From contig CAVPCT010000003.1 of assembly GCA_963702475.1 (NCBI GenBank), forward strand, positions 192,001 through 256,000: DNA of 64,000 bases. Direction: 5' to 3'. The stretch comes from an uncultured Thermoleophilia bacterium (GTDB lineage Bacteria > Actinomycetota > Thermoleophilia > UBA2241). Below the pieces are notes generated by a model, which saw only the letters and a program-made list of their open reading frames with translations, was not told where the DNA came from and did no database searches. The position numbers and the translations under genes are program-made. Below, piece by piece: positions 46,995-63,902 of this stretch (the stretch's first letter is position 1; each line of letters starts with the position of its first letter).

Positions 46995-47898
46995 AGTGGA
47001 AGGAGTTCCAGGAGCAACGAGAGCACCCGGCGCGAGTTCCTGAAGAACGCCGGTGATCGCGGGGGCGTCAGCGGTCGCGCTGACGATCGGCGGCTCGCTC
47101 ACCGATGGGACGCCTGTGGCGGCAGCCATCACGGGCACACCCAGAAACGACACGGTCCGCATGGTGCAGGACCTCCAGCGCGCACTCACCCGCCCCGTCG
47201 GGTCACGCCGCTGGGGGATGGTCATCGACCCACGGCGCTGCATCGGCTGTCACGCCTGCACCGTGGCCTGCATCGCGCAGAACGGGTTGCCGGTGGGCGT
47301 CACCTATCGCACCGTCCCCGAGGTCGAGTCCGGCTCGTACCCAGCGGTCGAGCGCTTCTTCATGCCGGCCAACTGCATGCAGTGCGAGAAAGCCCCGTGC
47401 ATCAAGGCGGCGAACACCATCGTCAAGGGCTCCATGGCTCGCCGCCCGGACGGCATCGTGATCATCGATTACTCCCGCATGAAGGGCAAGAAGGTGTTCA
47501 AGGCGGCCGACAAGGCGTGCCCCTACGACAACGCCCTCTACTACGACGCAGGCCGCAGCTGGACAAGCGGCACGCCTGCCCTGCAGCCCTACGACAAGCG
47601 CGGCTCCCACGAATACGGCAAGACCTGGTCGAGGGCCAAGACCAAGGGCGCGACGCGCAAGTGCCACTTCTGCACGGAGCGCATCGACGCGGGCCTGCTG
47701 CCCGCGTGCGTGGCGACGTGCACAGGGCAGGCCATGCACTTCGGCGACCTGAGTGATTCGCAGAGCCTCGTGGCCGAGCTCGTGGCCGCCAGGACGACCC
47801 TGATCATCGAGAAGGGCGCGAGCACGGCGCCGCGCGTGATCTACGTCGACGATCCGTTGGAGGGGTCCGCCATGACCTGCTCCACGTGTCACGGCTGA
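46995..47898 (+). CDS. TtrB/DmsB-like Fe-S subunit with Tat signal (frameshifted 5' end, start uncertain) and terminal CXXCH
   Basis: STRREFLK near 47025; WGMVID..CIGCHACTVAC, CMQCEKAPC, ACPY, KCHFC..PACVATC, ending CSTCHG. Confidence 0.82.
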
Positions 47899-47909
47899 GA
47901 GGAGGACCG

Positions 47910-50900
47910 ATGCAGAACGACGATTCCCTGGACCTCCTCGAGACGGGCGTGTCCACGAGCGAGGCGCTGAGCGAGTCCACGAGCAAGCCCGCCGGCAAGT
48001 CCCGGCGTGAGTTCCTGTGCGCCGGCGGGCTCGTGATGGGTGCTGCCTTCCTCGGCAGTCGCTTCCTCACGGCCTCGCAGGCCGTGGCCGGTGAGGCGGG
48101 TGCGAACGTGACGCAGGCCGGCACGACCGCAGGCAACCCCATCCACACGGTGTGCCTGCAGTGCAACACCGGCTGCGGCATCAAGGTCACCGTGGACAAG
48201 GGCGTCGCGACCAAGATCGAGGGCAACCCGTACAGCCCCTGGACTATGGTCCCCGCGCTGCCCTACGCGACGCCGCTGGCTGAGGCCCTCCCCATCCAGG
48301 GCGCCCTCTGCCCCAAGGGGCAGGCCGGCCTCGAGACCGCGTATGACCCGTACCGCATCGTCAAGGTGCTCAAGCGCGCCGGCAAGCGCGGCGAGAACAA
48401 GTGGATCACGTCCCCTCGACCAGGCCGTGACGGAGGTCGTCGAGGGCGGCAGGCTGTTCACGTCCGTGCAGGGCGAGGAGCAGCGCCAGGTCACGGGTCT
48501 CCGTGGAGATCTGGGCACTGCGTGACAAGAAGGTGGCCTCGGACATGTCCGCCGCCGTGGACGCTATCCGCGCCAAGAAGCCGGAGGAGCGCGCCGCGGC
48601 CATCGCCGAGTTCAAGACGAAGTTCGCCGCCGACCTCGACAAGCTCATCGACCCGGACCACCCGGACTTCGGCCCCAAGAACAACCAGCTCGTCTTCGCC
48701 TGGGGTCGCCTGAAAGCCGGGCGCTCGGAACTCATCAAGCGCTTCGTGCAGGAGTCATTCGGCTCGACCAACGCCCACGGCCACACGACCGTCTGCCAGG
48801 GCTCGCTCTACTTCACCGGCATGGCGATGAGCGACCAGTTCACCGAGGGCAAGTTCACCGGCGGCTCCAAGGCCTACTGGCAGGCCGACACGAGCGACGT
48901 TGAGTTCCTGCTCGCCATCGGCTCCGCGTACCTGGAGGGCGGCTACGGGCCCTCGCATCACGCCCGTAAGCTGATGAAGAACCTCGTCGACGGCAAGCTT
49001 AAGATCGCCGTCGTCGACCCGAGGTTCTCGAAGATCGCCTCGAAGGCGGGAAGTGGGTGCCCATCAAGCCCGGCGCCGACGCGGCCCTGGCGCTCGGCGT
49101 GATCCGCTGGATCCTCGAGAACGACAAGCACGACAAGAAGTTCCTCGGTGCCGCGAACAAGGCCGCCGCGACCGCCGCGGGCGAGGGCTCCTACACCAAC
49201 GCCGCCTGGCTCGTGAAGGACGACGGCAAGTTCCTGCGCGCCTCGAGATGGCCTGGCGGAGAAGGAGACCCGCGCGACCGCCGCCGGCGGCACCTGGGTC
49301 TTCGATACGTTCGTCGCCGTCAAGGATGGTGCTCCCGTCGCCCTCGACCCCAACGACACCAGCAAGGCGGTCGTGGGCGACCCGCTCTACAGCGGCACGA
49401 TCGGCGGCAAGAACGTGAAGACCGTGCTGCAGACGGTGCTGGACACGGCCAAGCAGAAGACCATCGAAGAGTGGGCGGCCGTCTGCGGCATCGTAGCCGG
49501 CGACATCGTCGAGCTCGCCCAGGAGTTCACCTCCCACGGCAAGAAGGCCGTCGCCGACCTACACCGCGGCGTCGCGCAGCACACCAACGGCTTCTACAAC
49601 GTGCTCGCCGTGTACACACTGAACACGCTGGTCGGCAACTGGGACCACCCGGCGGGCTCCTCAAGCTCACCACCTACACGTCGACGGCTCGAAGGACAAC
49701 CAGCCCTTCGCACTCGGTAAGCTGCACTCTGGCCGCAAGCCGTTCGGCCTCAGCATCATCCGTCACAACACCAAGTACGAGGACAGCACGATCTTCGCGG
49801 GCTACCCCGCCAAACGCAACTGGTACCCCTTCGCCAGCGACGTCTACGAGGAGATCGTCCCCTCCATCGGCGACGCCTATCCCTACCCGGTGAAGGCGCT
49901 GATCACGTACATGGCCGCGGCCCCGTACTCGCTGCCGGGCGGCCAGACCAACATCGAGTCCTCTCCGACGTCGAGAAGCTGCCGCTGTACATCGCCAACG
50001 ACACCAGCATCGGCGAGATGTCGATGTACGCGGACTACATCTTCCCCGACGTCTCGTACCTGGAGCGCTGGGAGTTCCACGGCAGTCACCCCTCCATCGG
50101 GGAGAAGGTGCAGCCGGTCCGCAATCCCGTCATCGCGCCGCTCACGGACGACGTGGCCGTCTACGGCGAGCAGCAGCCGAGCTCCCTCGAGGCGATGCTG
50201 CTCGGCTTCGCCGAGAAGCTGGCCTCCCGGGCTTCGGCCCGGACGGCTTCGGCACCGGTCTCGCCCTCACGCGCGGCGACGACTTCTATCTGCGCATGGT
50301 CGCCAACCTGGCGGCCGGCGACAAGACCGGTGAGGAGGCGCCCGACGCGGATGACGCCGAGCTCGCCATGTTCCTGGACGCGCGCAAGCACCTGCCCGCC
50401 ACCGTCTTCGACGCGGCGCGCTGGCAGAAGATCGTCGGCGACACGTACTGGCGCAAGGTCGTCTACGTGCTCAACCGCGGCGGCCGCTTCCAGGACGTCG
50501 AGAAGGCGTACACCGGCGACGTCTTCAACAACAAGTACGGCAAGCTGGTCAACATGTACATCGAGAAGGCCGTGAGCACGAAGTCCGCGATCACGGGCAA
50601 GGCGTTCCTGCCAACGGCCTCGTACCTGCCCATCAGGAACGTACAGGACCAGGTCGTGGACGACTCGGCCGAGGGCTACGATCTGTCGCTCATCACCTTC
50701 CGCGACATCCTCATGACCAAGAGCCGGACGATCGTCGACTACTGGCTCACCGCGATCCTGCCCGAGAACTCTATCGTCCTCGGCGCGCAGGACGCCTCGC
50801 GCCTCGGCCTCAAGACGGGCGACAGCGTGCGCGTGACCTCCAAGTCGAACCCGACCGGGGAGTGGGACCTGGGCGCCGCCGGCACCAAGCCCATGGTCGG

Positions 50901-51156
50901 CAAGGTGAAGGTCGTGCAGGGCATGCGGCCCGGCATCGTCGGCTTCTGCCTCGGCTACGGCCACTGGGCCAATGGCGCCGGCAACGTGACGGTCAACGGC
51001 AGGCTCGTCAAGGGCGACAAGCGTCGCGCCACGGGCGTGCACGCCAATGCCGCCATGCGCCTCGACGACTACCTCAAGAACACCTGCATGCTGGACCCGG
51101 TGGGGGGCAGCGTCTCCTTCTACGACACCAAGGTGAAGCTCGTGAAGCAGAGCTGA
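47910..51156 (+). CDS. TtrA-clade molybdopterin oxidoreductase catalytic subunit (about 9 frameshifts)
   Basis: Tat SRREFL; [19 protein letters not shown]; DPYR..LKR.GKRGE.KW; EVVEGG.LF; [16 protein letters not shown]; GHTTVC; YLERW; GYGHW. Confidence 0.88.
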
Positions 51157-51178
51157 CGACCAGCTCTGCCGAAGAAGT

Positions 51179-51259
51179 GCGGGGGACGGCGCCACCGTCG
51201 CCGTCCCCCGCCACTCAGACGACCTGTCGCCGGTTTGCGGATTCCGGTGGCAGGTCGTC
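51179..51259. terminator. Two tandem hairpins between convergent operons
   Basis: GCGGGGGACGGCG/CGCCGTCCCCCGC and GACGACCTGTCGCCGG/CCGGTGGCAGGTCGTC. Confidence 0.65.
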
Positions 51260-51268
51260 GCACTCCGC

Positions 51269-51964
51269 CTACTTGACGAGCAGGTAGACCCCGGCGAGCA
51301 CGACGAGGGCCCCGCAGGCACGGCGCACCCAGCGCGTGACGCCCGAGCGACCGCCCCATGAGACGACCGTCTGGGCCCTCTGGGCGGCTGTGCCCGCCGC
51401 GACGATGACGCCGCAGTGACCGAGGGCGAACGCCCCGAGAAGGGCGACGGCGAGCCCGTAGTCTATCTCGGGCCTGCCCGAAGACGATCATTAGCAGCGG
51501 CGCCAAGAAGGCGAAGGAGCAGGGGCCGAGCCCGACACCGAACACGAGGCCCAGCCCCAGCGCGGCCGGCATGCCGCGGCGGTGGGTCGTCGATGGGAAC
51601 GACGTCCAGCGGAGCGGCAGCAGGTCCATGAGGTAGAGGCCGAAGACGAAGAAGACCACGGCCACGGCGACGTTTCCGACTGGCGCCGAGGTCGCCGACC
51701 AGGCGGCCCAGCGAGGCGGTGATCAGGCCGATCAGCGCGATCGAGGCCAGGACGCCGAGCGAGAAGACGAGTGACAGCCTGAAGGCGCGCCTGGTCGAGG
51801 CGTCTTCCTGCGTGGAGATGAAGCCGACGATCGAGGGGCACACTGGCCAGGTGGCACGGGCTGAAGACGATGCTGACGACGCCCCAGGCAAAGGCCGCGA
51901 GCAGGGCCCAGCCGAGCGACTCGCTGAGGCCGTTGCTCAGGCTGGTGAGGACCTGCTCGAGCAT
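51269..51964 (-). CDS. ccdA: CcdA/DsbD-family thiol transporter (several frameshifts)
   Basis: FSPCHLASVP and LGPCSFAF motifs in different frames. Confidence 0.8.
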
Positions 51965-51973
51965 GGCTCGACG

Positions 51974-52415
51974 CTACTGCGTCGTGACCTTCTCGAGGCC
52001 GTGCTCGATGAGCAGCGCCTCGATCGTCTCCTGAGGATAGAAGCCGGTGTGCCGGTGGAACTCGGCGCCCTTTTCGTCGAGGAAGACCTGGGTGGGGATA
52101 TACTGGATGCCGTATGCCGCGCCGGTGCGTCGTCTTCCCAGACGTCGTAGAAGACGACCTCACCTGGTCGCCGAAGGTCTGCTGCGATGCCGTCCATGAC
52201 CGGGCGCATCTCCTTGCAGGGGATGCACGTGTCGGAGCCGAGTTCGACGAACGTCACCTTCGCTGTGGCGCTCGGGCGCCGGGTGCGGCGAGGGTACGGC
52301 GGAGGAGCCGGCTGCGCCCGCGCTCCGCCGCACCCCGTGAGCGCGACGACGCCGAGCCAGGAGACAGTGCAGCGCAAGAGGACGAAGCAGGCCGCGTGCG
52401 CGCCGCGCGAGTCAT
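51974..52415 (-). CDS. Exported thioredoxin-like lipoprotein (frameshifted)
   Basis: LTGC lipobox, ELGSDTCIPCKEM, FYDVW, PTQVF..RHTGF. Confidence 0.75.
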
Positions 52416-52693
52416 CCCTGAGCGGCCAGCGCCGTCGTGATCATCGAGCTGACCTCGGACTGCGACGGCACCTTGCCGCTCATCACGACCTCGCCGTCGA
52501 TGACGAGGGCGGGCGTGGACATCACGCCGTAGGCCATGATCGTGGGGAAGTCCTCGACTTTGACGAGCTCGGCGTCGGCCATGCCGAGGTCGCGCAGGGC
52601 CGCCTCGGTGATCGCCATCAGCTTCTGGCAGTTGGCGCAGCCTGAGCCAAGGATCTCGAGCTCACGTGCAACTCTCCTTCTTGTAGTGGTCAT
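52412..52693 (-). CDS. Small redox-active disulfide protein (MTH895-like thioredoxin)
   Basis: ILGSGCANC..YGVMSTPALVIDG..GKVP. Confidence 0.9.
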   Translation of the reverse strand: MTTTRRRVARELEILGSGCANCQKLMAITEAALRDLGMADAELVKVEDFPTIMAYGVMSTPALVIDGEVVMSGKVPSQSEVSSMITTALAAQG

Positions 52694-53076
52694 GACGCGT
52701 TGCGTCGCGCCGGCTTGTTCGCCGCCGTCGCGCAGGCGCTGGCGGCTTGCTGGGGGTCGCCGGGGCAGTCGCGCAGGCGCTGTACGTAGTCGAGGAAGCC
52801 CTTGAGGTCGCCGTCGAAGCGCTCCCAGTCGATGGAGTAGTAGGTGCGCGTGCCCTCGTTGCGCATACGCAGCAGGCCGGCATCGCGCAGAAGTGCGAGG
52901 TGGTGCGAGACCAGCGGCTGGCTTTGATCGAGCGGCCCCGTCATCTCGCAGACGCAGCGCTCGCCGCCCAGCAGGAACTCGACGATCTGCGCGCGTATGG
53001 GGTTGCAGAACGACTTGAAGAACGGGACGAAGTCGACGATGCTGCCGGCCTCTGCGGGGTCTTTGGCGATCTTCAT
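52690..53076 (-). CDS. arsR: ArsR/SmtB-family regulator
   Basis: NPIR..ERCVCE..SQPLVSHHLALLRDAGL; extra C-terminal cysteines. Confidence 0.9.
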   Translation of the reverse strand: MKIAKDPAEAGSIVDFVPFFKSFCNPIRAQIVEFLLGGERCVCEMTGPLDQSQPLVSHHLALLRDAGLLRMRNEGTRTYYSIDWERFDGDLKGFLDYVQRLRDCPGDPQQAASACATAANKPARRNAS

Positions 53077-53077
53077 A

Positions 53078-54193
53078 TCAGCTCCTCGGTGGGTCGCAGG
53101 CGACCTCGTTGGCACCGGCGGCGACCGCCGCCGGCACAGGTTCGTCGGTCATGCCCCAGTACTTGCTGCCGAGCCAGAGCGCCACGCTCACAAGGCCGAT
53201 GAGCACCGGCACCTCGACGAGCGGGCCGATGACGCTCGCGAACGCCTCGCCTGAGTTGAGGCCGAAGACGGCGATGCTGACCGCGATCGCGAGCTCGAAG
53301 TTGTTGCTCGCGGCGGTGAAGCACAGGGTCGCCGTCTTCGAGTAGTCGGCGCCGATGCGACGGCCCATGAAGAAGCTCACGAAGAACATGATCACGAAGT
53401 ACAGGGACAGCGGGATGGCGATGAGGAGCACGTCCAGGGGCAGCTCGACGATGAGGTCGCCCTTGAGGCTGAACATCACGAAGATCGTGAACAGCAGGGC
53501 GATCAGCGTGAGCGGGCTGATCCGCGGGATGAACTTGTGCTCGTACCAGTCGCGGCCCTTGGTCTTGAGCCCGATGTAGCGGCTGACCATGCCGGCGATG
53601 AACGGGATGCCGAGGTAGATGAAGACGCTCTTGGCGATCTGCCCGATGGTGATGTCGACGGCCACGCCCTCGAGGCCGAAGAGCGGCGGCAGCTTGGTCA
53701 CGAACACCCAGGCGAACACGCTGTAGAAGAGCACCTGGAAGACGCTGTTGAAGGCCACGAGGCCGGCGGCGTACTCGGTGTCGCCCTTGGCCAGCTGGTT
53801 CCAGACGATCACCATGGCGATGCAGCGCGCCAGGCCCATCATGATGAGCCCGACCATGTACTCGGGGTAGTTGTGCAGGAAGATGATCGCCAGGAAGAAC
53901 ATCACGAACGGCCCGATGAGCCAGTTCTGGACGAGCGAGAGGCCGAGTATCTTGTAGTCGCGGAAGACGTCCCCGAGCTCCTCGTAGCGCACCTTGGCGA
54001 GCGGCGGATACATCATCACGATGAGGCCGATGGCGATGGGGATGTTGGTGGTGCCCACCGTCCAGCGGTCGATGAACTCGGGCACGGAGACGAACGCCCA
54101 GCCGACGCCGACGCCGATGAACATCGCGAGGAAGATCCACAGCGTCAGGTAGCGGTCGAGGAACGAGAGGCGCGTTGTCGCGGTTTCGGCCAT
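53078..54193 (-). CDS. acr3: ACR3-family arsenite efflux transporter
   Basis: [49 protein letters not shown]. Confidence 0.96.
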
Positions 54194-54249
54194 TGGCTGA
54201 CTCCTCCTCGAAGCGTGTGCATGTCCTGGGTGCCTGACCACGAGGCTAC

Positions 54250-54282
54250 ATTGACATCCGTTGATGGTCAAGCTAAGTTGAT
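54250..54282 (+). promoter_or_regulatory. sigma70-like promoter overlapped by two ArsR-type boxes (acr3/arsD divergent region)
   Basis: TTGACA-17 bp-TAAGTT; ATTGA-N6-TTGAT and GTCAA-N6-TTGAT. Confidence 0.7.
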
Positions 54283-54317
54283 ATAAACGTTTCCCTATGA
54301 AATCCCAGGAGGTCGTC

Positions 54318-54946
54318 GTGACGCTCGTGCAAGTGTTCGACCCTGCCATGTGCTGCTCGACCGGGGTCTGCGGACCTTCGGTCGACCCGCAGCTCGTGCG
54401 CTTCGCCGCCGACCTCGACTGGCTGAAGGGCCAGGGGGTCTCGGTCGAGCGCTTCAACCTCGCCCAGGAGCCGCGCGCGTTCGCCGAGAACGCCGCCGTC
54501 AAGGACGCCCTCGAGGTCACGGGCGAGGCCGCACTGCCGCTCGTGGAGGTGGACGGCGAGGTCAAGAGCCGCGGCGTGTACCCGTCGCGCGACGAGCTCG
54601 CCCTGTGGGCCGGCGTCGCAGCGCCCGCCGCGAGCCTCTTCACCGACGAGGTCGCCGAGCTGGTGGCCATCGGCGCCGCCATCGCGTCCAACTGCGAGCC
54701 CTGCTTCAAGTTCCACTATGCGGCGGCGCGCAAGCTCGGCGTGTCGCGAGAGGACATGGCCTCCGCCGTCACCATGGCTCAGCGCGTCAAGGACACGCCT
54801 GCCCAGTCGATCCTCATGCTCGCCGACCGCATCCTCAAGCCCGGAGCCGAGGGCGACGAGGCCGATGGCCGAAGCGCCGCAGGCGGCGGCCAGGCTCCTG
54901 CTGTGGCGGAGCACCGACAGAGGCCAAGGCCGGCGGATGCTGCTAG
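54318..54946 (+). CDS. arsD: ArsD metallochaperone fused to an AhpD/carboxymuconolactone decarboxylase-like domain (frameshift near 54885)
   Basis: [22 protein letters not shown], then [20 protein letters not shown]; tail GSCC..GGCC in a shifted frame. Confidence 0.88.
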
Positions 54947-54962
54947 CAGCCAGGGCAACACG

Positions 54963-56706
54963 ATGATCGACCGATCCCACGCCGATCCTCTTCTTCACCG
55001 GCAAGGGCGGCGCCGGCAAGACGACGACCGCCTGCGCCACCGCCATCGCCCTCGCCGACGCCGGCAGTCGCGTGCTCCTGGTCAGCACCGACCCGGCCTC
55101 GAACCTCGACGAGGTGCTCGGTGTCGAGCTCTCCGGGGCGCCGGAAGGCGTCCCGTTCGTGCCGCGCTTGTCGGCCCTCAACATCGATCCGGAGGCGGCC
55201 GCCCGCGACTACCGCGAGCGCGTCGTCGGCCCCTATCGCGGCGTACTGCCGGAGGCTGCGGTGGCGAGCATCGAGGAGCAGCTCTCCGGAGCCTGCACGA
55301 TGGAGATCGCCGCGTTCGATGAGTTCTCCAAGCTGCTCGGGGACGAGGCCGCGACGGAGGCGTTCGACTACGTGGTCTTCGACGCCGCGCCGACCGGGCA
55401 CACGCTGCGCCTGCTGGAGCTGCCGGCGGCATGGTCCGACTTCATCGAGACGAACGTGGGCGGCACATCGTGTCTGGGTCCGCTCGCCGGGCTGGAGGCG
55501 CAGAAGGAGCTCTACGCCGCCACCAACGCCGCGCTGCGCGACGCGGCGAGGACGACCCTCGTCCTGGTGGCTCGACCGGAGGCTTCCTCACTGCGTGAAG
55601 CCGAGCGCACCCGCGGTGAACTGGCGCAGCTCGGAATCGGCAATGTCCGGCTGATCGTCAACGGGGTGTTTCGGGCCACTGACCCAGGCGATGCGACGGC
55701 GCTCGCGATGCAAGCTCGCGGCGAGGCAGCGCTCGAGGGCATGCCCGGGGCCCTTCGCGGACTTGAGCGCGTCGGAGGTCCCGCTCCTCCCTACGGCCTC
55801 GTCGGCGTCGATGCGCTGAGGAGCATGAGCGGTCGCGCTCCCTTCGACGTGGCCGCGGACGCGGCCGACTCGGATGGCTTTGCGGCCGGCGGCCTCGCGG
55901 ACCTCGTTGGAGCAGATCGCTGCTCAGGGCAAAGGCGTGGTCATGACGATGGGCAAGGGCGGCGTGGGCAAGACGACCGTCGCGGCTCGCATCGCGACGA
56001 TGCTCGCCCAGCGGGGGTTTGGCGTCACGCTGACGACGACTGATCCGGCGGCGCACGTCGAAGCGGCCCTCGGCGAGAGGCCGGAGACGCTCCGCGTGAC
56101 GCGCATCGATCCCGCTCTCGAGACGCAGCGCTACACCGAAGAGGTGGTCGCCACCGCGGGCGAAGGCCTCGACGCCCAAGGGCCTTGCGCTCCTCGAAGA
56201 GGACCTGCGCTCGCCGTGCACCGAGGAGATCGCGGTGTTCCGGGCCTTCGCCGAGACGGTCGCGCAGGGCAGGGAGCAGTTCGTCGTCATCGACACGGCG
56301 CCGACCGGCCACACGCTGCTCCTGCTCGACGCTGCCGAGGCGTACCACCGCGAGGTGCTGCGCAAGTCCAGCGGCAGCCCGGAGGCGGTCCAGCACCTGC
56401 TGCCGCGCCTGCGAGACCCGTCCTTCACGAGCGTGGTCCTGGTCACGCTTCCGGAGGCCACCCCGATCCACGAGGCGATGCAGCTCGAGCGCGGACCTGG
56501 CCCGCGCCGGCATCAAGCCCTTCTCCTGGGTCGTGAATCAGAGCCTGACGCCACTCGAGGTCAGTGACCCGGTCCTGGTCTCGAGGCGTTCCCACGAGGG
56601 CACTCATCTGCGCGAGCTTGTGGCTCACGCCGAGCGCATCGTCCTGGAGCCTTGGGCATCCCCGACCTCGCGACGTAGTACGGCAGAGGCCGCGACCCCG
56701 CTCTGA
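54963..56706 (+). CDS. arsA: Arsenical pump-driving ATPase (several frameshifts)
   Basis: FTGKGGAGKTT, STDPASNL, EQLSGACT, APTGHTLRLL, MGKGGVGKTT, DLRSPCTEE, DTAPTGH. Confidence 0.92.
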
Positions 56707-56753
56707 GCGGGCCTGGCTGTCACCCCCACGTTGACCCCTGAGAGGTAGACCCC

Positions 56754-57515
56754 GTGAAGACCATCCAGATCGAGCAGCCGTTCGCCGTCTTCTCCGACGT
56801 GCACGGCAACCTGCCCGGACTCGAGGCGATCCTCGCCGATATCGCGCGGCGCGAGGTGCCGGCGACCATCTCGCCTCGGCGACCTGGTCGGCTACGGACC
56901 CTCCCCGAACGAGGTCGCCCTGCTTGTCCGCGACCGCGGCATCCCCTCGCTGATGGGCAACTACGACCAAGGGCATCGGCTTCGAACTCGGCGACTGCGG
57001 CTGCGTCTACAAGACCGACGAGCAGCGCGCCGAAGGAGCCGCCTCGCTCGCCTGGACGCAGGAGGCGGTGACCGACGAGGTCAAGGCGTATCTGCGCACG
57101 CTCGAGGACCACTTCACGCTCGAGACGTCGGCGCGGCGAACTGCTCGCCGTGCACGGCAGCCCGCGGCGCATCAACGAGTACCTCTTCGAGGACCGGCCG
57201 GAGTACGCCATGGTGCGCATGGCCGACGAGTATCCCTACCCGGCGATCTTCTTCGGCCACACGCACGTGCCCTACGCGCGGCTGGTGGGCGAGACGACCT
57301 TCGTGAACGTTGGCAGCGGCGGCCGGCCCAAGGACGGCGACTGGCGCGTGTGCTACGCGTCGTCGATCCCGCACGGCTGGGACGCCCGGCTTCGTCGAGT
57401 TCGTGCGCGTGCCCTACGACTACGAGAGGTTGAGCGGGAGCTGGCCGCGACGCCGTTGATCACGAGCTTCGCGGGTCCGCCACCCGCGGTCGAAGGGGTG
57501 ACCGGTCATGAGTGA
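56754..57515 (+). CDS. Metallophosphoesterase (frameshifted)
   Basis: SDVHGN, GDLVGYGP, GNYD, HGSP, GHTH, NVGS.G.PKDGD. Confidence 0.85.
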
Positions 57516-57954
57516 GCACGCCCTCGAGGGTGAGCACGTCCAGGGAGCATCCACTCTGGCAGAAGGAGGACAGCAGATGGAGGCGCAGCGCCCCGGGCTT
57601 GTCATGTGCGTCTGCACCGGCAAGTGCCCCGGTTTCGAGCAGCTGGACATCTGGGACTTCATCAACCAGGTGCGGGTGGAGCTGCCGGTCGAGTTCGGGA
57701 TGATCCATCCGCAGCTGTGCGAGGAGGACGGCGACCGCTTTCTGGCCGACCTCCTTCTCGCCGGGCGCCCGCTGGTCATCGCGGGATGCGCCCCGAACAT
57801 GCAGTACAAGCTGTTCCGCGATGCTTTTGCCGAGCGAGGCATGGACATCAAGAAGGACATGGTCCCACTCGACATCCGTGACATGCCGACCGACCAGGCA
57901 GTGAAGAAGGTCGCCGACGCGCTGCACAGCATGGGGGTCGAGGGCGATGTCTGA
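57508..57954 (+). CDS. Stand-alone HdrA N-terminal-like Cys domain protein
   Basis: VMCVCTGKCP..HPQLC..VIAGCAP..DIR pattern of the HdrA N-domain. Confidence 0.7.
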   Translation: MSEHALEGEHVQGASTLAEGGQQMEAQRPGLVMCVCTGKCPGFEQLDIWDFINQVRVELPVEFGMIHPQLCEEDGDRFLADLLLAGRPLVIAGCAPNMQYKLFRDAFAERGMDIKKDMVPLDIRDMPTDQAVKKVADALHSMGVEGDV

Positions 57955-58237
57955 GAACACGTTCATGGGAGTGGCGCGGGAGAGCATCCCCTGGGCGCCC
58001 CTCATCGACTACGAGAAGTGCGACTTCTGCATGGAGTGCGACGAGTTCTGTCCCCACCGGGTCTTTGAGCGCCGGGAAGGCGACGTCAAGCTGGTGGTCG
58101 CCAATCCGAACAACTGCGTGGTGTTCTGCCGCGCCTGCTCGAAGACCTGTGGCCCCGATGCCATCACGTTCCCCGACAAGCCCGAGACGATCAAGCTGAT
58201 CAAGGAGCTGCGCAAGGCGGAAGGCGGGCCGACATGA
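57947..58237 (+). CDS. 2x[4Fe-4S] ferredoxin
   Basis: CDFCMECDEFCP and CVVFCRACSKTC. Confidence 0.9.
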   Translation: MSENTFMGVARESIPWAPLIDYEKCDFCMECDEFCPHRVFERREGDVKLVVANPNNCVVFCRACSKTCGPDAITFPDKPETIKLIKELRKAEGGPT

Positions 58238-59079
58238 GCTACGCCGTCCTTGCCTGCAACGGCGTGGACAAGATGGAGGGTGCGCTGGCGCGGGAGGTGG
58301 GGCTTCAGGTCGCTGAGGCGACGGGGGCAGACATCATCTGTCCGGTCCTCCTCAATCGCGCCCCGGACCACTACGAGAAAGCGCTCGGCGAGGACGCCCT
58401 GATCGTCGTCGACGGCTGTGGCACGAGGTGTGCCTCGAAGCTCGCCGCCGCGGTGGGGGCCAAGCCGAAGCAGAAGGTCCTCGTCTCGAAGCTCGTGAAG
58501 GCGTCCGGAGAGCATCTCCAGGCTTCACTGCGCCTCGGGCCCGACGGGACGGCGCTCGCCGAGCGCATCGTGGCGGACGTCGTCGCAGCCTTGGACGCAT
58601 CGGGACACCAGGCGACGCCGGCTGCATGGGAGGCGCCGACAGACTTCTTCGTCGTCGTCTTCAACAAGTTCGAATTCCACATCCCCACACAGGGTTACTG
58701 GTTCAGCGAGAACGACACCTGGGCCCGCCAGATGGGGAACCGGGCACGAGTCGGCATCTCCGACTACCTGCAGCAGCAACTCACCGACATCCTGTACTTC
58801 AACCCGCCGGAGCTCGGGACGCTGGTGGAGCAGTTCGGGGAGCTGGGGGAGGTCGAATCGTCGAAGGCGATCTTCGAGATCATCGCGCCGGTGAGCGGCA
58901 CTGTCGTGGCGGTCAATGAGACGGTGGTGGGAGAGAGCCCTGAGCTCGTCAATGCGGATCCCTACGGCGAAGGGTGGCTCGTCGAGGTCGAGTTGAGCGC
59001 CTGGGCGGAGGAGAGCGAGCTGCTCCTGGACGGGCCCGCCTACCGCGACACAGTCGGACCCAAGGCTGCGGACTATTGA
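58234..59079 (+). CDS. DGC (putative Zn-binding) domain fused to a GcvH-like lipoyl-carrier domain
   Basis: LACNG..ICP..VDGCGTRCA; W......ARVGISDY.Q..L.DI..VESSKA..APVSG.V..VN..VNADPYGEGWL. Confidence 0.88.
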   Translation: MSYAVLACNGVDKMEGALAREVGLQVAEATGADIICPVLLNRAPDHYEKALGEDALIVVDGCGTRCASKLAAAVGAKPKQKVLVSKLVKASGEHLQASLRLGPDGTALAERIVADVVAALDASGHQATPAAWEAPTDFFVVVFNKFEFHIPTQGYWFSENDTWARQMGNRARVGISDYLQQQLTDILYFNPPELGTLVEQFGELGEVESSKAIFEIIAPVSGTVVAVNETVVGESPELVNADPYGEGWLVEVELSAWAEESELLLDGPAYRDTVGPKAADY

Positions 59080-59101
59080 CGGGTTGAGAGAGGTCGGTCA
59101 T

Positions 59102-59530
59102 ATGGAAAGCGAAGCAGGCAAGAACCCCGTTCTCGTCATACCGTGCAGCGGGATCGGCAAGGTGCAGGGCCTCCTCAGCAGGGAGGCGACCTACCTTGCG
59201 ACGGACGAAGTGGCCACGGGCGTGACCGACACGCTGTGTCTGGCCTTGCTGGTCAAGGGCGATGCGGACGCGGTGGCCAGGGTCCGGACGCACGAGTGCA
59301 TCACCATCGACGGTTGCGCAAAGGCCTGTGCCAGGAAGAACACGGAGATCGCCGGCGGACGGGTCGCCAAGGCGGTGCAGGTCGCGGCCGCGCTGAAGAA
59401 CCACCGCGGGGTGCAGCCGGGCACGTCAGAGATCCTGACGGTCGACGGCTGGTCCGTCGCCCGGGAGATCGCCGAAACGGTCGCCGTCGATGCCGAACGT
59501 CTGCAGGCCGGCGACGAGGTGGCCCCATGA
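59102..59530 (+). CDS. DGC-domain protein
   Basis: IPCSG..LCL..IDGCAKACA. Confidence 0.85.
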   Translation: MESEAGKNPVLVIPCSGIGKVQGLLSREATYLATDEVATGVTDTLCLALLVKGDADAVARVRTHECITIDGCAKACARKNTEIAGGRVAKAVQVAAALKNHRGVQPGTSEILTVDGWSVAREIAETVAVDAERLQAGDEVAP

Positions 59531-59979
59531 GTGACCCGGCGAGCGCCGACACCATCAAGGTCGGCATCATCTCCTGCAGTGGTGAGGAGATCCCCGAGGG
59601 CACCATCTCGCGCCTCGCGACGCTCCGCGTCCTTCGGACGCTGCGCCCAGAGGCGAGCGTGACGATCTGCCTGCCCCTGTTCCTCGCCGGAGAGGGAGGC
59701 GAGCGCAACTTCGCCAAGACCCACCCGACGATCACCGTCGATGGCTGCGATAAGCAGTGCGCCAGGTGGGGCACCGAGAAGTACAGCGGGCCGGTGGCCC
59801 GCGCGCTGGTGGTCTCGGACATGCTGGGGACCGACTCTGCCGACTGTCAACGATCGACGCGATCGCCCGGCCACGCGGACGAGGAGGCCGTGCGCGTCGT
59901 CTCCGAGAAGATCGTGTGCGCCCTCGACGAGGTCCTCCAGGAGCAGGGCACGGCATCACGCGGTGGGGACGACGGATAA
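59527..59979 (+). CDS. DGC-domain protein
   Basis: ISCSG..ICLP..VDGCDKQCA. Confidence 0.85.
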   Translation: MSDPASADTIKVGIISCSGEEIPEGTISRLATLRVLRTLRPEASVTICLPLFLAGEGGERNFAKTHPTITVDGCDKQCARWGTEKYSGPVARALVVSDMLGTDSADCQRSTRSPGHADEEAVRVVSEKIVCALDEVLQEQGTASRGGDDG

Positions 59980-60018
59980 GTCGAAGCGCGATTTGACCGC
60001 GAACGAGGAGCCTCGCGC

Positions 60019-60822
60019 ATGGACACGCTGACCACCTTCACCGACCGCAAGGAGTTCGAGCGGGCGATCGCACTGCTCCGGCGCCTGCGGATCGACCACC
60101 AGGTCGTCTCGCCGGATCCCGCCTACAGTGCCGTGGGCTCTCCCGCTCTGGTGCTCTCTCCCGAAGACAGGGCGGCGTTTCTGGACGGGGGCGGCGTCGA
60201 CCTTGTCAACGCCGGCTGGGTGGACTACCGGCTTCCTCCAGAGGACGTGCCGCAAGCGGAGCCGCGCGAGTTCGTCGAGGACATGGTCGGCAGGGTCGCC
60301 ATCGTCGTGCTCGCGACCTGCATCGCAGACGCGGCCCGGCTGCGCCTCATTGCGCACTTCTCCGGGGACGTGGCGGAGGCCTTGCCGTACCTCAACGGCG
60401 AGTTCCTTCAAGGCTCCTACGTGCCCGCGATGCCCGTCTTCACCTACATGGACGGCCACCGCATGGTCTCGCTGTTCCGCGACCGCATCGGCATCGCCAA
60501 GGCCGACGACATCGTCGACGCCTGGGCGAGCCTGGAGCGCGTCCGCTGCCTCGTCAACGACGTCTGGGCGCGGCGCGCGCAGATCACACCCTCGACGGAG
60601 ACGCGACGCCGGCCACCGGCCCTGGAGATCTACAAGCGTCTGCCGGGCACCAACTGCAAGGACTGCGGCGAAGCCACGTGCATGGCCTTCGCCTGGGCGG
60701 TGTGGCGCGGCGACGCCGAGCCGCGTGAGTGCCTTCCAGTCTTCGTGGGTGAGCGCGCCGATCTCAAGGATGCGCTGCTCGCCATCTGCGCCGGACTCGG
60801 GCTGGCGGAGGACGACACGTGA
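60019..60822 (+). CDS. Fe-S cluster protein with C-terminal RnfB/AcsC-type FeS domain
   Basis: LPYLN core; LPGTNCKDCGEATCMAFA..C.P. Confidence 0.82.
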   Translation: MDTLTTFTDRKEFERAIALLRRLRIDHQVVSPDPAYSAVGSPALVLSPEDRAAFLDGGGVDLVNAGWVDYRLPPEDVPQAEPREFVEDMVGRVAIVVLATCIADAARLRLIAHFSGDVAEALPYLNGEFLQGSYVPAMPVFTYMDGHRMVSLFRDRIGIAKADDIVDAWASLERVRCLVNDVWARRAQITPSTETRRRPPALEIYKRLPGTNCKDCGEATCMAFAWAVWRGDAEPRECLPVFVGERADLKDALLAICAGLGLAEDDT

Positions 60823-60926
60823 TGGCGGTCGCTACCATCACGGTGTCGTCCCCGGTCTTCTGAGCCAGCCGGCAGCGGAGGCCTCCACGATTCATGCACT
60901 TGTGTTTATGAACTGCGGGGTAGATA

Positions 60927-60942
60927 ATCAGCAAATGTTGAT
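60927..60942 (+). promoter_or_regulatory. ArsR-type palindrome upstream of the fmdE operon
   Basis: ATCAG-CAAATG-TTGAT in an AT-rich patch; same form as the 54250-54282 boxes. Confidence 0.62.
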
Positions 60943-61028
60943 GAACTAAGCCGCAGTGTGCGCCTCGAGATGGCGCTGCGAACCGGTCCTCGACCTCGTC
61001 ACGTGAGCGTCTTCCAAGGAGGAGTGTC

Positions 61029-61646
61029 ATGACCACGCCGTACGCGCCGCCCGAGTGGGCCTTCGAGTTTCATGGCCACCGCTGCCCGTTCATGCCGATC
61101 GGGTACCGCATGGGCAGGCTCGCCATGCAGCGCCTCGGCGTCGAACGCGAGAAGGACCACGGCTTCTACGTGGTCGCCGAGCTCGGCGAGGGCCATCCCC
61201 AGACCTGCATGATGGACGGCATCCAGGCAGCCACCGGCGCCACCTACGGCAAGCTGCTGCTCTCACGCACCTTCTGGGGCAAGCTGGCGGCCGTGTTCGC
61301 CCATCCCGAGAAGGGCGCGGTGCGCTACGCGCTCAACGCCGACTTCATGGACGAGATGGGCAAGCACGAGTTCTTCGCCTACCGCAAACGCGGCATCGAG
61401 CCCTCCGAGACACCCGCGGAGATCACCGAGGACCTGGTGGCATGGATCGCCGAGCTGCCCGACCAGACGGTCTTCAAGGTCGAGGACATGCCGGGCTACG
61501 TCTACACGCCGGTGAAGGGCTCGTTCAACAAGACCAGGTGCTCGAGCTGCGGCGAGTACGTCTTCGACCGCTACGTGCGCACCAAGGACGGCGCGCCTGT
61601 CTGCATCCCGTGCTCGGGGTACGAACCCGCGCCGCAGCGGAAGTAG
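61029..61646 (+). CDS. FmdE-family protein with Zn finger
   Basis: FHGHRCP..G, C..DGIQ..GATYGK, CSSCGE..CIPC. Confidence 0.88.
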   Translation: MTTPYAPPEWAFEFHGHRCPFMPIGYRMGRLAMQRLGVEREKDHGFYVVAELGEGHPQTCMMDGIQAATGATYGKLLLSRTFWGKLAAVFAHPEKGAVRYALNADFMDEMGKHEFFAYRKRGIEPSETPAEITEDLVAWIAELPDQTVFKVEDMPGYVYTPVKGSFNKTRCSSCGEYVFDRYVRTKDGAPVCIPCSGYEPAPQRK

Positions 61647-61659
61647 AGGGGAGGCACCG

Positions 61660-62487
61660 ATGAAGGATCCGACCGTTGTCGCAGGCGCCGGCGAGGCTGC
61701 CGCAGCGCCCGACCTGCAGACTATCGCCGACGAGATGGAGCAAACCATCGGGCTCGACGGTGCACCGGTGGCCGTGTTCCTGCTAGCTCCCGGGGCCGAC
61801 ATGTCGCCGTTCGCCGGTTGGGAAGCGGTGGAACGCCATCGCTACTGCCAGGCCCTGATGAAGGCGCGCGCCGGCGAGTGCGTCATCCTCGAGCCCGAGG
61901 AGCTGGCCTGCCCGGCGGCGGCCCGCGCCTTTGGCTTCAAGCCGTTGCCGCCGGCTCTGCAGACGGGCAAGGGCCTGGTCGGCTTCGGCATCGTCGCCAA
62001 ACCTGAGAGCGGCGCCACCATGTTTGACGGCATGAGCTGCCTCGAGCCGGGCACGGTGGCGCGCCTTGCGCTCTGCCCGCTGGCCGAGGCGCCGGCGCTG
62101 CCGGACGTGGTCGTTGTGGAAGGTCCTCCGGAGCAGCTCATGTGGCTGCTGCTGGCCGAGGTGAACCTGCGCGGCGGCGAACGTCTCACCGGCAGCACCG
62201 CCGTGCTGCAGGCGACCTGCGTCGACGCCACCGTCATCCCGCACCTCGAGCAGCGCCTGAACTTCACGATGGGCTGCTACGGCTGCCGCGAAGCCACCGA
62301 CATGGCGCCCGCCGAGACGGTCGTCGGCTTCCCTGGCTCTCGCCTCATGCAGCTCGTCGACAGCCTCGCCTTCCTCGGCGTCAAGGCGATTCCACGCTCG
62401 CGCGCCAAGCACGCCCACGAGGCACTCGTCAGTGGGTGCGCACCGAACGCTGACGCGCCGTCACCCTTCAGTCGGCGGGCAGAGTGA
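61660..62487 (+). CDS. DUF169-family protein
   Basis: PVAV..RYCQA..A..CP..G; PDVV..P.Q; ATC..GCYGCR. Confidence 0.85.
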   Translation: MKDPTVVAGAGEAAAAPDLQTIADEMEQTIGLDGAPVAVFLLAPGADMSPFAGWEAVERHRYCQALMKARAGECVILEPEELACPAAARAFGFKPLPPALQTGKGLVGFGIVAKPESGATMFDGMSCLEPGTVARLALCPLAEAPALPDVVVVEGPPEQLMWLLLAEVNLRGGERLTGSTAVLQATCVDATVIPHLEQRLNFTMGCYGCREATDMAPAETVVGFPGSRLMQLVDSLAFLGVKAIPRSRAKHAHEALVSGCAPNADAPSPFSRRAE

Positions 62488-62541
62488 CGCCGTCTCAATC
62501 CGCTTCCATCGTCCACCCATTCTCCGTCCAGAGGAGTCACC

Positions 62542-63138
62542 ATGCTTGATAAGGACCTGCTCGACCTCGGCCTCAGGTTCCACGGCCACAGGTGCCCGGC
62601 CATGCCCATGGGCCTGCGCGCCGGCGTCGCCGCAATGGAGGCCCTCGGCGTCGAGCGCGCGCCCGACGGCCAGCTCGTCGCCCTCGTCGAGATCGACGAG
62701 GACCACTGCGCCACCTGCTTCGCCGATGGTATCCAGGTCGCCACCGGCTGCACCTTCGGCAAGGGCAACATCCGTCGCCTCGGCTACGGCAAGTTCGGCC
62801 TCACACTGGTCGACAAGCGCACGCAGCGCGCCGTGCGCGTCGTGCCCAAGGGCAGCGTGATGATGAAGAACCGCGAGTCCGAGTTCATGAAGCTCCGCAG
62901 CTCCGGCATGCCGGCCTCGCAGATCCCCTCCGAACTCGTCGCCCCGCTGATCGCCAACGTCTCCTCGGCCCCCGACGCGGCGATCCTCGACGTCGGCGAG
63001 GTCAGCGCCTACGAGTGGCATGACGGACCGCACACCTTCGAGGCCTTCCTCTGCCCCGAGTGCGGTGAGATGGTCGTCGAGCGCAATGCGCGCGTCAAGG
63101 GCGGCGTCGCCGTCTGCCGTCCCTGCGCCGAGCGTTAG
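62542..63138 (+). CDS. FmdE-family protein with Zn finger (second paralog)
   Basis: FHGHRCP.MP.G, CFADGIQ..GCTFGKGN, CPECGE..CRPC. Confidence 0.88.
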   Translation: MLDKDLLDLGLRFHGHRCPAMPMGLRAGVAAMEALGVERAPDGQLVALVEIDEDHCATCFADGIQVATGCTFGKGNIRRLGYGKFGLTLVDKRTQRAVRVVPKGSVMMKNRESEFMKLRSSGMPASQIPSELVAPLIANVSSAPDAAILDVGEVSAYEWHDGPHTFEAFLCPECGEMVVERNARVKGGVAVCRPCAER

Positions 63139-63159
63139 GCCGCGGGGGAAGGTGCGCAC

Positions 63160-63902
63160 ATGACGAGCACCTACCTCATCGCCGCGCTCGTGACGCTCGC
63201 CTTCACGATCGTGCTCACCGTGGCCGGTCTCGGCGCGGCCTTCATCCTGGTGCCGGTCTACCTGGCTCTAGGAGTGGAGTTGCACTCGGCGCAGGCCACA
63301 GCGCTGCTACTCAACGCCATCGCCATGGCCTTCGCCTGCGCGCGCTACATCCCGGCGAAGCTGGTCGACTTCCGTATCGCCATCCCCATCGTCATCGTGG
63401 CTACGATCGTCTCGCCGCTCGGGGCCTACACCAGCTCCTTTGTGCCGGTAACGACGCTGAAGTGGATGTTCATCGGCTTCCTCGTCTTCGCCGGGGCGAT
63501 GATGCTCTTCTACAGGCCCAAGCCGCACGAGGTGGCCGGCCGGGGCGAGGTCGTCGGCGTGGGCTTGGGTGTCGGCGGCGCGGCCGGCTCCTCGGCGGCA
63601 TGCTGGCGTCGGCGCGGCAACTTCAGCGTCCCCGCGCTCGTGCGGCTCGGACTCGACCCAAACGCGCCTCCGGCACCACCGCGTTGCTGGTATTCGCCTC
63701 GTTCACGGGCTTCCTCGGCCAGGCCTCAGTCGCCACCATCGACCTCACACTGCTCGGCTGGACCGCCGCCGCCGCGATCATCGGTGCCCTGATCGGCTCG
63801 TGGCTCATGCACCGCAAGCTCCAGGCGGCGCAGGTGAAGACGTCCATCGGCGTGCTGCTCTTCTTCATCGCTGCGACGATGGCGTGGCAACTGCTGGCGT
63901 GA
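63160..63902 (+). CDS. TauE/SafE-family sulfur-compound exporter (frameshifts near 63585-63690)
   Basis: AGLGAAFILVP and repeated helical pattern; C-terminal half in a shifted frame. Confidence 0.8.

Follow-up and report, generated by a model that had tools for sequence, protein, structure and literature searches.

The stretch of DNA analyzed here, a 64,000-nt Thermoleophilia window to which all coordinates refer, contains an arsenic-resistance (ars) region with a GC content of ~68%. On its plus strand, a gene for ArsD fused to an AhpD-like CMD domain is followed by arsA, a metallophosphoesterase gene, six genes that we number 1 to 6, and genes for an FmdE protein with a Zn ribbon, a DUF169 protein, a second FmdE protein, and TauE. 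On the minus strand, behind a divergent ars promoter, lie acr3, arsR, a thioredoxin (trx) gene, a gene for a thioredoxin-like lipoprotein, and a DsbD/CcdA-type gene. The subject of this work is a cassette made up of genes 1 to 5, which are located, together with gene 6, as follows.

57508-57954, plus strand: gene 1, Fe-S protein resembling the N-terminal domain of HdrA (profile match to HdrA); likely true start at 57574
57947-58237, plus strand: gene 2, 2x[4Fe-4S] ferredoxin (PF00037, 25.8 bits against a cut-off of 21.1)
58234-59079, plus strand: gene 3, fusion of a DGC domain and a GcvH-type lipoyl carrier (PF08859, E 1.6e-16; PF01597 (GCV_H), E 1e-28)
59084-59530, plus strand: gene 4, DGC protein (PF08859, E 3.3e-13)
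59527-59979, plus strand: gene 5, DGC protein, paralogue of gene 4 (PF08859, E 1.8e-14)
60019-60822, plus strand: gene 6, three-domain protein with a PF04060 [4Fe-4S] motif (E 1.4e-13, residues 208-240)

A previous reading of the DNA letters (the sequence-only reading) had described these six genes as intact, closely spaced and continuing the arsD-arsA operon. We found all six open reading frames to be uninterrupted, with overlapping or short junctions of -8, -4, +4, -4, and +39 nt, and a plot of GC content at third codon positions shows one frame per gene. The domains that had been listed for them (an HdrA N-terminal domain, a ferredoxin, three DGC domains, a lipoyl carrier, and a PF04060 Fe-S motif) were borne out by Pfam and by our gene 1 profile, and none of the six proteins matched an ars-named NCBIfam model. 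The genes do not directly continue arsD-arsA, as the metallophosphoesterase gene (56754-57515), which that reading did not list, sits between arsA and gene 1.

We collected 84 cassette loci, consisting of the best 80 of 322 relatives of the gene 1 profile among GTDB species representatives and four from a search with the fusion protein; individual loci are given L numbers below. Genes 1 to 5, including the DGC-GcvH fusion as gene 3, were complete and in order in 79 of the 84, while the remaining five were cut by a contig end. In the four full-length loci from the fusion-protein search, genes 1 to 5 likewise follow one another in this order and gene 6 is absent. Judging by their record titles, the carriers bear at least eight phylum-level labels, spanning Thermoleophilia and other Actinomycetota, Acidobacteriota, Armatimonadota, Bacillota (Desulfosporosinus, Peptococcaceae, Clostridiaceae, and Negativicutes), Desulfovibrio, Bacteroidales, Planctomycetaceae, and a 'Cyanobacteria' metagenome-assembled genome (MAG), with gene 1 identities of 59-89% across carriers. 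By gene order and content, then, genes 1 to 5 are a widespread, invariant five-gene cassette. The six-gene unit that had been proposed is one gene too long, since gene 6 accompanies the cassette in only 8 of the 84 loci.

The pathway had also been called anaerobic, a label that does not fit its hosts. A gene for haem-copper oxidase subunit I lies within the window (31689-33029; PF00115, E 1.4e-162), so the host can probably respire oxygen. PF00115 was also matched in 31 of 50 carrier genomes, 20 of them at E <= 1e-100; the 50, which include incomplete MAGs, were hand-picked from the 84 carriers to span taxa, and PF00115 also covers NO reductases. Since many carriers encode a haem-copper oxidase, the cassette does not appear to be confined to anaerobes.

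The product of gene 1, 126-148 aa in length, gave no Pfam or NCBIfam match, and in particular no Pyr_redox or FAD match in Pfam. Its profile, which comprises 41 sequences, matched residues 3-93 of HdrA (PDB 7bkb, E 2.4e-4; 9sfi, E 2.4e-3; 5odc, E 0.07). Five Cys residues (C12, C14, C18, C49, and C72) are invariant in the 41 sequences, and C12, C14, C49, and C72 align with HdrA Cys residues in a CxC...C...C pattern. In HdrA, those N-terminal-domain residues bind a [4Fe-4S] cluster. Gene 1 and the HdrA of the HdrABC-MvhAGD complex (5odc, 7bkb, 9sfi) thus have an N-terminal domain in common, but gene 1 is free-standing, carries the extra invariant C18, and is devoid of all other HdrA domains. The family comprises at least 1255 clusters at 90% identity, named either 'heterodisulfide reductase subunit A-like polyferredoxin' or 'hypothetical protein'; gene 1 itself had no match in 72,556 plasmids. 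For the ferredoxin of gene 2, the best NCBIfam matches were HgcB-like and far below cut-off.

The three DGC domains of genes 3, 4, and 5 scored 60.7, 50, and 54.1 bits against a PF08859 cut-off of 27. Within 48 gene 3 sequences, C8, C36, D60-G61-C62, C66, and the lipoyl lysine K211 in its ES.K motif are invariant, and the four Cys residues and the DGC motif are invariant in the alignments of all three DGC proteins. The carrier part of gene 3 falls below the GcvH equivalog cut-offs (PRK01202, 112.4 bits vs 117; TIGR00527, 102.2 vs 115.85), and a housekeeping GcvH, 44% identical to it, is encoded elsewhere in the genome. An AlphaFold2 model of gene 4 (predicted local distance difference test score, pLDDT, 92.8) has a three-layer alpha/beta fold in which, according to the secondary structure, the four invariant Cys residues occupy the C-terminal ends of strands 1-3 and the beginning of the helix that follows. 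Metal or cluster sites are usually found at this position, and we predict one in the DGC domain. Searching PDB sequences with the DGC profile returned nothing credible. An LMW-phosphatase/ArsC fold was considered for the DGC domain and rejected, the only matches (Foldseek E 0.15 and Z 6.4) being inside the noise band. Genes 4 and 5 are paralogous, with an hhalign probability of 99.7%; kinship between the gene 1 and DGC profiles was likewise rejected, as a probability of 0.2% marks them as unrelated. In many Acidobacteriota loci (e.g., L087-L132), gene 5 encodes ~233 aa instead of ~150, owing to an ~85-residue extension with a CxC pair near its end.

We then compared the neighbourhoods of the cassette, counted within flanks of up to 8-10 kb on each side, with those of 76 housekeeping gcvH loci from the fusion-protein search (1.26 Mb in total), which were scanned with the same queries. 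A gene for Acr3, ArsA, or ArsD lay within ~8 kb at 30 of 84 cassette loci vs none of the 76 controls, in agreement with the arsenic link drawn by the sequence-only reading. When ArsP and ArsC-like genes are added, the count rises to 36. An ars-type context of some kind surrounds 78 of the 84 loci, and the six loci devoid of any ars-type neighbour are all cut to 2.5-11 kb. ArsR, Trx_3, Acr3, ArsA, ArsD, ArsC-like, and CMD genes were all absent from the 76 controls. Core ars genes stood beside the cassette in at least one locus of seven of the eight named phylum-level labels. In the neighbourhood comparison that had been suggested as a check, the enrichment of ars genes therefore held up, while 54 of 84 loci had no Acr3, ArsA, or ArsD gene in their flanks; the tie to ars structural genes is frequent, not obligate.

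An ArsR homologue was found near 59 of 84 loci, 57 of these 59 having a CxC site, and in 22 loci ArsR is encoded on the same strand and at most 500 bp upstream of gene 1. Its position suggests that a CxC-type ArsR controls the cassette. A Trx_3/ArsE-like protein is encoded near 58 loci and immediately upstream of gene 1 in 47 of them. LplA/B-type lipoate ligase genes lie near 39 of the loci, directly after gene 5 in 32, and the ligase of L001 passes TIGR00545 (292.7 bits vs 280). Homologues of the Lpd-like flavoprotein of Desulfosporosinus metallidurans (L003) occur in 8 of 84 loci; the L003 gene, directly upstream of gene 1, encodes a dihydrolipoyl dehydrogenase equivalog (516.9 bits vs 408.8). 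Together with the invariant lysine, these ligase and Lpd-type genes suggest that the lipoyl carrier is functional, as had been supposed. Among the remaining neighbours, Acr3 was counted in 27 loci (28 were found, and the one in L117, at 26% identity, was dropped), LMW-phosphatase ArsC-like proteins in 18, AhpD-like CMD proteins in 17, ArsP in 7, ArsA in 5, and ArsD in 4, and Trx-like (21/84) and DsbD_2 (23/84) genes form a recurring pair. In one Acidobacterium (L090), a single strand reads arsR-acr3-arsC-arsR-trx, genes 1 to 5, the ligase gene, two further genes, dsbD, and CMD. The two genes before dsbD have no Pfam match and are Trx-like by similarity.

The sequence-only reading had cast the genes as a stand-in for ArsC chemistry. 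ArsC-like genes adjoining the cassette in 18 of 84 loci argue instead for cooperation with ArsC. Thioredoxin-coupled ars operons, in which an LMW-phosphatase-type ArsC works with thioredoxin and is run by NADPH-thioredoxin reductase, resemble the cassette loci in placing thiol-reductant genes under ArsR control beside acr3 and arsC. We know of no such operon that uses a lipoyl carrier or DGC proteins.

Within the window, the surroundings of the cassette are as follows.

51463-51891, minus strand: DsbD/CcdA-type membrane thiol transporter (PF02683, E 4.6e-6), frameshifted, at the tail of the acr3-arsR-trx operon
51937-52377, minus strand: thioredoxin-like lipoprotein (weak Thioredoxin match, E 0.0063), frameshifted
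52412-52693, minus strand: small Trx-fold protein of the MTH895/ArsE family with a CxxC motif (PF13192, E 1.9e-26; TIGR00412, 97.3 bits vs a cut-off of 62)
52690-53115, minus strand: ArsR/SmtB repressor with an ERCVCEM site (PF01022, E 1.5e-13; NF033788, 77.3 bits vs a cut-off of 55)
53078-54192, minus strand: Acr3 arsenite efflux permease (84.7% identity to the L081 homologue; the L090 homologue matches PF01758)
54247-54288: conserved 42-bp block, putative promoter/operator, in the divergent ars promoter; near-invariant in 6/6 aligned divergent regions
54297-54946, plus strand: ArsD fused to an AhpD-like CMD domain with a CxxC motif (PF06953, E 3.5e-42; PF02627, E 1.3e-9)
54963-56706, plus strand: ArsA ATPase (tblastn with the intact ArsA of L097 and L102), at least four single-base frameshifts
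56754-57515, plus strand: metallophosphoesterase (PF12850 matched by the fragment and by the L162 homologue, which is intact), at least five single-base frameshifts
61029-63902, plus strand: FmdE with Zn ribbon, DUF169, FmdE, and TauE (frameshifted); same order in L163 and L165, partly in L164, L167, and L169

A canonical ars set is therefore present at one locus, with ArsR (CVC), Acr3, ArsD, and ArsA all identified and the arsA frame broken in the assembly. ArsD passes NF033727 (129.4 bits vs a cut-off of 90) and its CMD part passes PF02627 (38.3 bits vs 23). The CMD part also matches, below cut-off, the NCBIfam model 'arsenite methyltransferase/AhpD domain selenoprotein', which indicates that AhpD domains occur in arsenic proteins elsewhere. 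The ArsD-CMD gene (54297-54946) further shows a CC...CC tail in a shifted frame.

Comparison with close relatives separates the cassette from the ars genes around it. The full-length relatives of gene 6 amount to about a dozen loci, mostly Thermoleophilia, and the cassette is absent from 7 of the 12 that we examined. They share a backbone in which trx, arsR, and acr3 point away from a phosphoesterase gene that leads, via intervening sequence, to gene 6, followed in several loci by TauE, FmdE, or DUF169 genes. In L162 and in contig C5 of the window's own genome, the gene between phosphoesterase and gene 6 encodes a 399-aa ArsP permease (PF03773). The same divergon lacks the cassette in L161, L162, L164-L167, and L169, with L161 reading arsD-arsA-phosphoesterase-gene 6. 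Likewise, the second ars divergon of the window's genome (L205, C5:219500-230500), which consists of trx, arsR, and acr3 facing phosphoesterase, ArsP, and a gene 6 paralogue (76% identical), has neither arsDA nor the cassette, and environmental contigs in three DNA runs join acr3 straight to the phosphoesterase gene with no arsDA. Where the cassette is present, its place differs: in one genome (loci L081 and L163) it stands before the phosphoesterase gene, directly behind the conserved promoter block, and in the window it stands after that gene, in the place of the relatives' ArsP. As the same divergon occurs in close relatives with the cassette elsewhere or missing, the cassette appears to move as a unit and, on this comparative evidence, is a horizontally mobile insert under a shared ars promoter.

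Because the backbone with gene 6 recurs without the cassette, gene 6 is best placed outside it, as part of a lineage-specific ars backbone block, and by the same gene-order comparison the FmdE/DUF169/FmdE/TauE stretch is a continuation of this Thermoleophilia block. The AlphaFold2 model of gene 6 (pLDDT 89.1) comprises a ferredoxin-like N-domain, a TBP-like middle domain with an invariant Cys, and the PF04060 motif; the middle domain superimposes on 1mp9_B with Z 11.0 and a root-mean-square deviation of 2.4 A over 93 residues. PF04060 itself scored 50.8 bits vs 23, as compared with 22.4 vs 68.7 for the RnfB subfamily and 53 vs 306 for ACDS gamma, so that gene 6 appears to share only the PF04060 domain with RnfB and corrinoid Fe-S proteins. 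In L146 and L150, gene 1 is immediately preceded by a short form of gene 6 (~185 aa), and in L155 a similar stretch occupies that place. In Thermoleophilia (L162-L169), the ars promoter is repeatedly followed by a block that reads phosphoesterase-ArsP-gene 6-(TauE)-FmdE-DUF169-FmdE-TauE. To our knowledge, the phosphoesterase, gene 6, FmdE, DUF169, and TauE genes of this block have no known role in arsenic biology, and we found no link of DUF169 or FmdE to arsenic in the open-access literature (PMC, bioRxiv).

The mobility of the cassette raises the question of chance juxtaposition, that is, of a housekeeping ferredoxin-lipoyl system unrelated to metals that happened to insert beside arsDA. Its variable position between close relatives and the frameshifted arsA of the window would both be compatible with such an accident. 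The neighbourhood counts already disfavor it, given the ars-type context of 78 of 84 loci across many phyla and of none of the 76 controls, and the genome has a separate housekeeping GcvH/Lpd locus (C3:126-132 kb). We regard this explanation as highly improbable.

The divergent intergenic region between acr3 and arsD is 104 bp long. Its 42-bp block precedes arsD in the window and in L161, the phosphoesterase gene in C5 of the same genome, L162, and L169, and cassette gene 1 in L081. From this recurrence we predict that the block is probably a promoter together with an ArsR operator. Its end is separated by 8 bp from the arsD ATG, pointing to a leader that is very short or missing. A scan of both strands from 52.3 to 64 kb yielded no sigma-70-like promoter and no intrinsic terminator, against 0.5 and 3.3, respectively, expected from shuffled sequences. 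With no internal promoter or terminator found, a single long transcript is plausible, and so is the cotranscription of genes 1 to 6 with arsDA that had been proposed from the gene spacing. A metatranscriptome run (X23) holds contigs 85% alike to gene 2 (57992-58177) and 94% alike to gene 3 (58611-58833), as well as one that is 99.5% alike to arsA (56286-56492). These contigs are a weak hint that the three genes are transcribed in relatives, with DNA carry-over as another possible source.

Gene content and context suggest that genes 1 to 5 are a self-contained mobile cassette that may serve as an accessory to an ArsR-controlled defence against arsenic or another thiophilic metalloid, a reading that we hold with about even confidence. 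In this scheme, electrons would flow from the ferredoxin of gene 2 and the HdrA-N-like [4Fe-4S] protein of gene 1 to the three DGC domains, whose four invariant Cys residues, at the top of a flavodoxin-like sheet, are taken to hold a metal or Fe-S center. The DGC domains would in turn hold the lipoyl arm of the fused H-protein in its dithiol form. From there, two branches can be envisaged. In one, the dihydrolipoyl arm would reduce the accompanying Trx-fold (ArsE-like) and AhpD-fold CxxC proteins and, via them, Trx-coupled ArsC; a known relay from a lipoyl protein to AhpD (NADH -> Lpd -> DlaT -> AhpD -> AhpC) is the precedent for this branch. In the other, which follows from the affinity of As(III) for dihydrolipoamide, the arm would chelate As(III) and hand it to ArsD/ArsA/Acr3. 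The window would then represent a case in which the cassette has entered an arsD-arsA-phosphoesterase operon behind the divergent ars promoter, with gene 6 and the FmdE/DUF169/TauE genes as a separate lineage-specific block.

Several observations weigh against an arsenic role. The 54 loci that have no Acr3, ArsA, or ArsD in their flanks are the majority, CDF transporter genes occur in 12 of 84 loci, and cysteine desulfurase and Se/S-carrier genes occur in 6 and 4, respectively. Sensors of the ArsR/SmtB family with a CxC site also respond to Cd, Pb, Zn, Sb, and Bi. The loci counted were the top 80 of 322 matches with four more added, and many of them come from Acidobacteriota; the counts therefore lack phylogenetic independence, and a Fisher P of 3e-8, computed on a count of 24/84, is only indicative. 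The DGC fold offers little guidance, as the gene 4 model found no PDB entry with Foldseek at E <= 0.001 and only generic flavodoxin-like matches, the best having a VIA Z of 8.1 (3pu6). In the genome of the window, the sole PF21948 (LplA/B-type) match adjoins the housekeeping Lpd/GcvH genes, leaving the cassette with no dedicated ligase. Lastly, with arsA frameshifted, it is uncertain whether the cassette of this strain is linked to an arsDA pump that works.

Some of these points would suit a general thiol/disulfide or soft-metal stress module that regenerates dithiols under Cd, Zn, Pb, Hg, or electrophiles and lies near ars genes by way of clustered ArsR/SmtB regulons. In L002 and L003, CDF genes are paired with ArsR next to the cassette, CxC sites are also found in CadC-type sensors, the recurring Trx-like and DsbD_2 pairs can be viewed as generic reductant exporters, and most loci have none of the three core ars genes. 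Set against this, Acr3, ArsP, ArsA, and ArsD (27, 7, 5, and 4 of 84) outnumber CDF and are absent from the controls, the Thermoleophilia cassette lies behind a promoter block common to acr3, and a DGC gene belongs to an operon induced by arsenic. We consider a general stress module rather unlikely.

The arsenic-induced operon is that of Pseudodesulfovibrio mercurii ND132, in which arsR5-arsP-arsE(PF13192)-DGC(PF08859) was reported as up-regulated in arsenic RNA-seq and the DGC protein was assigned no function by the authors (bioRxiv 10.1101/2022.10.17.512643). Like many cassette loci, it is led by ArsR and combines a PF13192 Trx-fold 'ArsE' with a PF08859 DGC protein; it differs in having one stand-alone DGC gene and none for a lipoyl carrier, a ferredoxin, or an HdrA-N-like protein. 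Among PMC and bioRxiv open-access texts, we found no other published expression evidence, and this one concerns a stand-alone DGC gene.

One of the closest parallels to the cassette is the sHdr-LbpA system, an analogy made by the sequence-only reading that we judge to be apt. There, a GcvH-like lipoyl carrier acts outside central metabolism with Hdr-related Fe-S proteins and comes with an LplA-like ligase gene of its own (Cao et al. 2018, eLife, PMC6067878). The cassette, too, has a dedicated GcvH-like carrier with a lipoyl lysine and an HdrA-related Fe-S protein. The differences are that, of HdrA, the cassette has only a free 125-aa HdrA-N-like domain and not the FAD core, that no HdrB/HdrC CCG domain was matched among 12 window proteins scanned (Pfam, E <= 0.01), that three DGC domains, one of them fused to the carrier, are present instead, and that the context consists of ArsR and ars genes rather than sulfur-oxidation genes. 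A dedicated ligase gene like that of sHdr-LbpA, absent from the window, is present in the 39 loci mentioned above.

The same parallel could point to sulfur or selenium trafficking, in which the lipoyl arm would carry a persulfide or perselenide between DGC proteins for cofactor synthesis or detoxification. Besides the likeness to LbpA and its ligase, this idea draws on cysteine desulfurase and PF11823 Se/S-carrier genes upstream of the cassette in L002, L003, L115, and L157 and on TauE exporter genes, one of which is downstream in the window and which occur in 6 of 84 loci. All of these neighbours are rare (4-6/84), and rhodanese, TusA, and DsrE were missing, along with the CCG domain, from the 12 proteins scanned. 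The adjacent regulators have vicinal CxC sites (57/59), whereas the persulfide sensors BigR and SqrR use a distant Cys pair. On balance, sulfur or selenium trafficking seems improbable to us.

For the branch of the arsenic scheme that runs through CxxC proteins, the precedent is the relay of Mycobacterium tuberculosis, in which a lipoyl dithiol reduces a CxxC protein of the CMD/AhpD fold (PMC12028322). AhpD-like domains near the cassette in 17 of 84 loci, and the one fused to ArsD in the window, are the points of likeness. That relay starts from NADH via Lpd and ends at a peroxiredoxin; the cassette is always accompanied by its Fe-S proteins, and no AhpC was seen with it. The window has both a carrier and an AhpD-like domain, while an Lpd gene, not adjacent there, adjoins the cassette in 8 of 84 loci.

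A bolder version of the arsenic scheme makes the DGC proteins new metal- or Fe-S-dependent disulfide reductases that take electrons from ferredoxin to keep the lipoyl arm of a dedicated H-protein reduced, with the arm capturing arsenite or reducing arsenate or organoarsenicals and delivering to ArsD/ArsA/Acr3. Lipoic acid, the classic target of arsenic, would then have become a resistance device that spreads between phyla. We put this forward as a tentative possibility. Few detoxification systems have been mapped as well as arsenic resistance, yet we found no description of the cassette in the open-access literature (PMC, bioRxiv). Were arsenic indeed handled via a protein-bound lipoyl dithiol, this would be a new biochemical principle for metalloid defence, would give the orphan DGC domain a function, and would add a third non-metabolic role of lipoate to those in sHdr-LbpA and the mycobacterial AhpD relay. 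Cultured carriers, Desulfosporosinus among them, make the question open to direct testing.

The broken frames beside the cassette have a likely technical origin. The pieces of arsA lie in frames 1, 2, 3, and 1, with the start region shifted too; each piece aligns as one stretch in its frame, and identities to L161 ArsA are 81-92%. At least five frame changes interrupt the phosphoesterase gene, and the 3' end of arsD is probably frameshifted, since the Cys-rich tail ending at 54946 lies in another frame. In all, the fragmented genes are those for the molybdopterin oxidoreductase (47.9-51.2 kb), DsbD, the Trx lipoprotein, the arsD 3' end, arsA, phosphoesterase, and TauE, and the frameshifts cluster at 47886-52377, 54880-57450, and 63500-63700; a 5.6-kb stretch with gene 1 at one end and the second FmdE gene at the other is free of them. 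No public run held more than 15% of the sampled words of 54200-61000. Contigs of relatives from three DNA runs carry frame-restoring single-base indels at 54971, 55773, 56178, 56493, 56969, 57133, 57378, and 57432. Related contigs are also much deeper on arsA and the phosphoesterase gene than on the cassette, and the pattern may thus stem from relatives that were cross-mapped during polishing. We consider it likely that the frameshifts are consensus errors of the assembly rather than signs of decay. The first cluster overlaps a region upstream of the ars genes (47053-51156) that encodes the Fe-S subunit and the frameshifted catalytic subunit of a molybdopterin oxidoreductase, for which the best models were TtrB/ArrB and TtrA, all far below cut-off.

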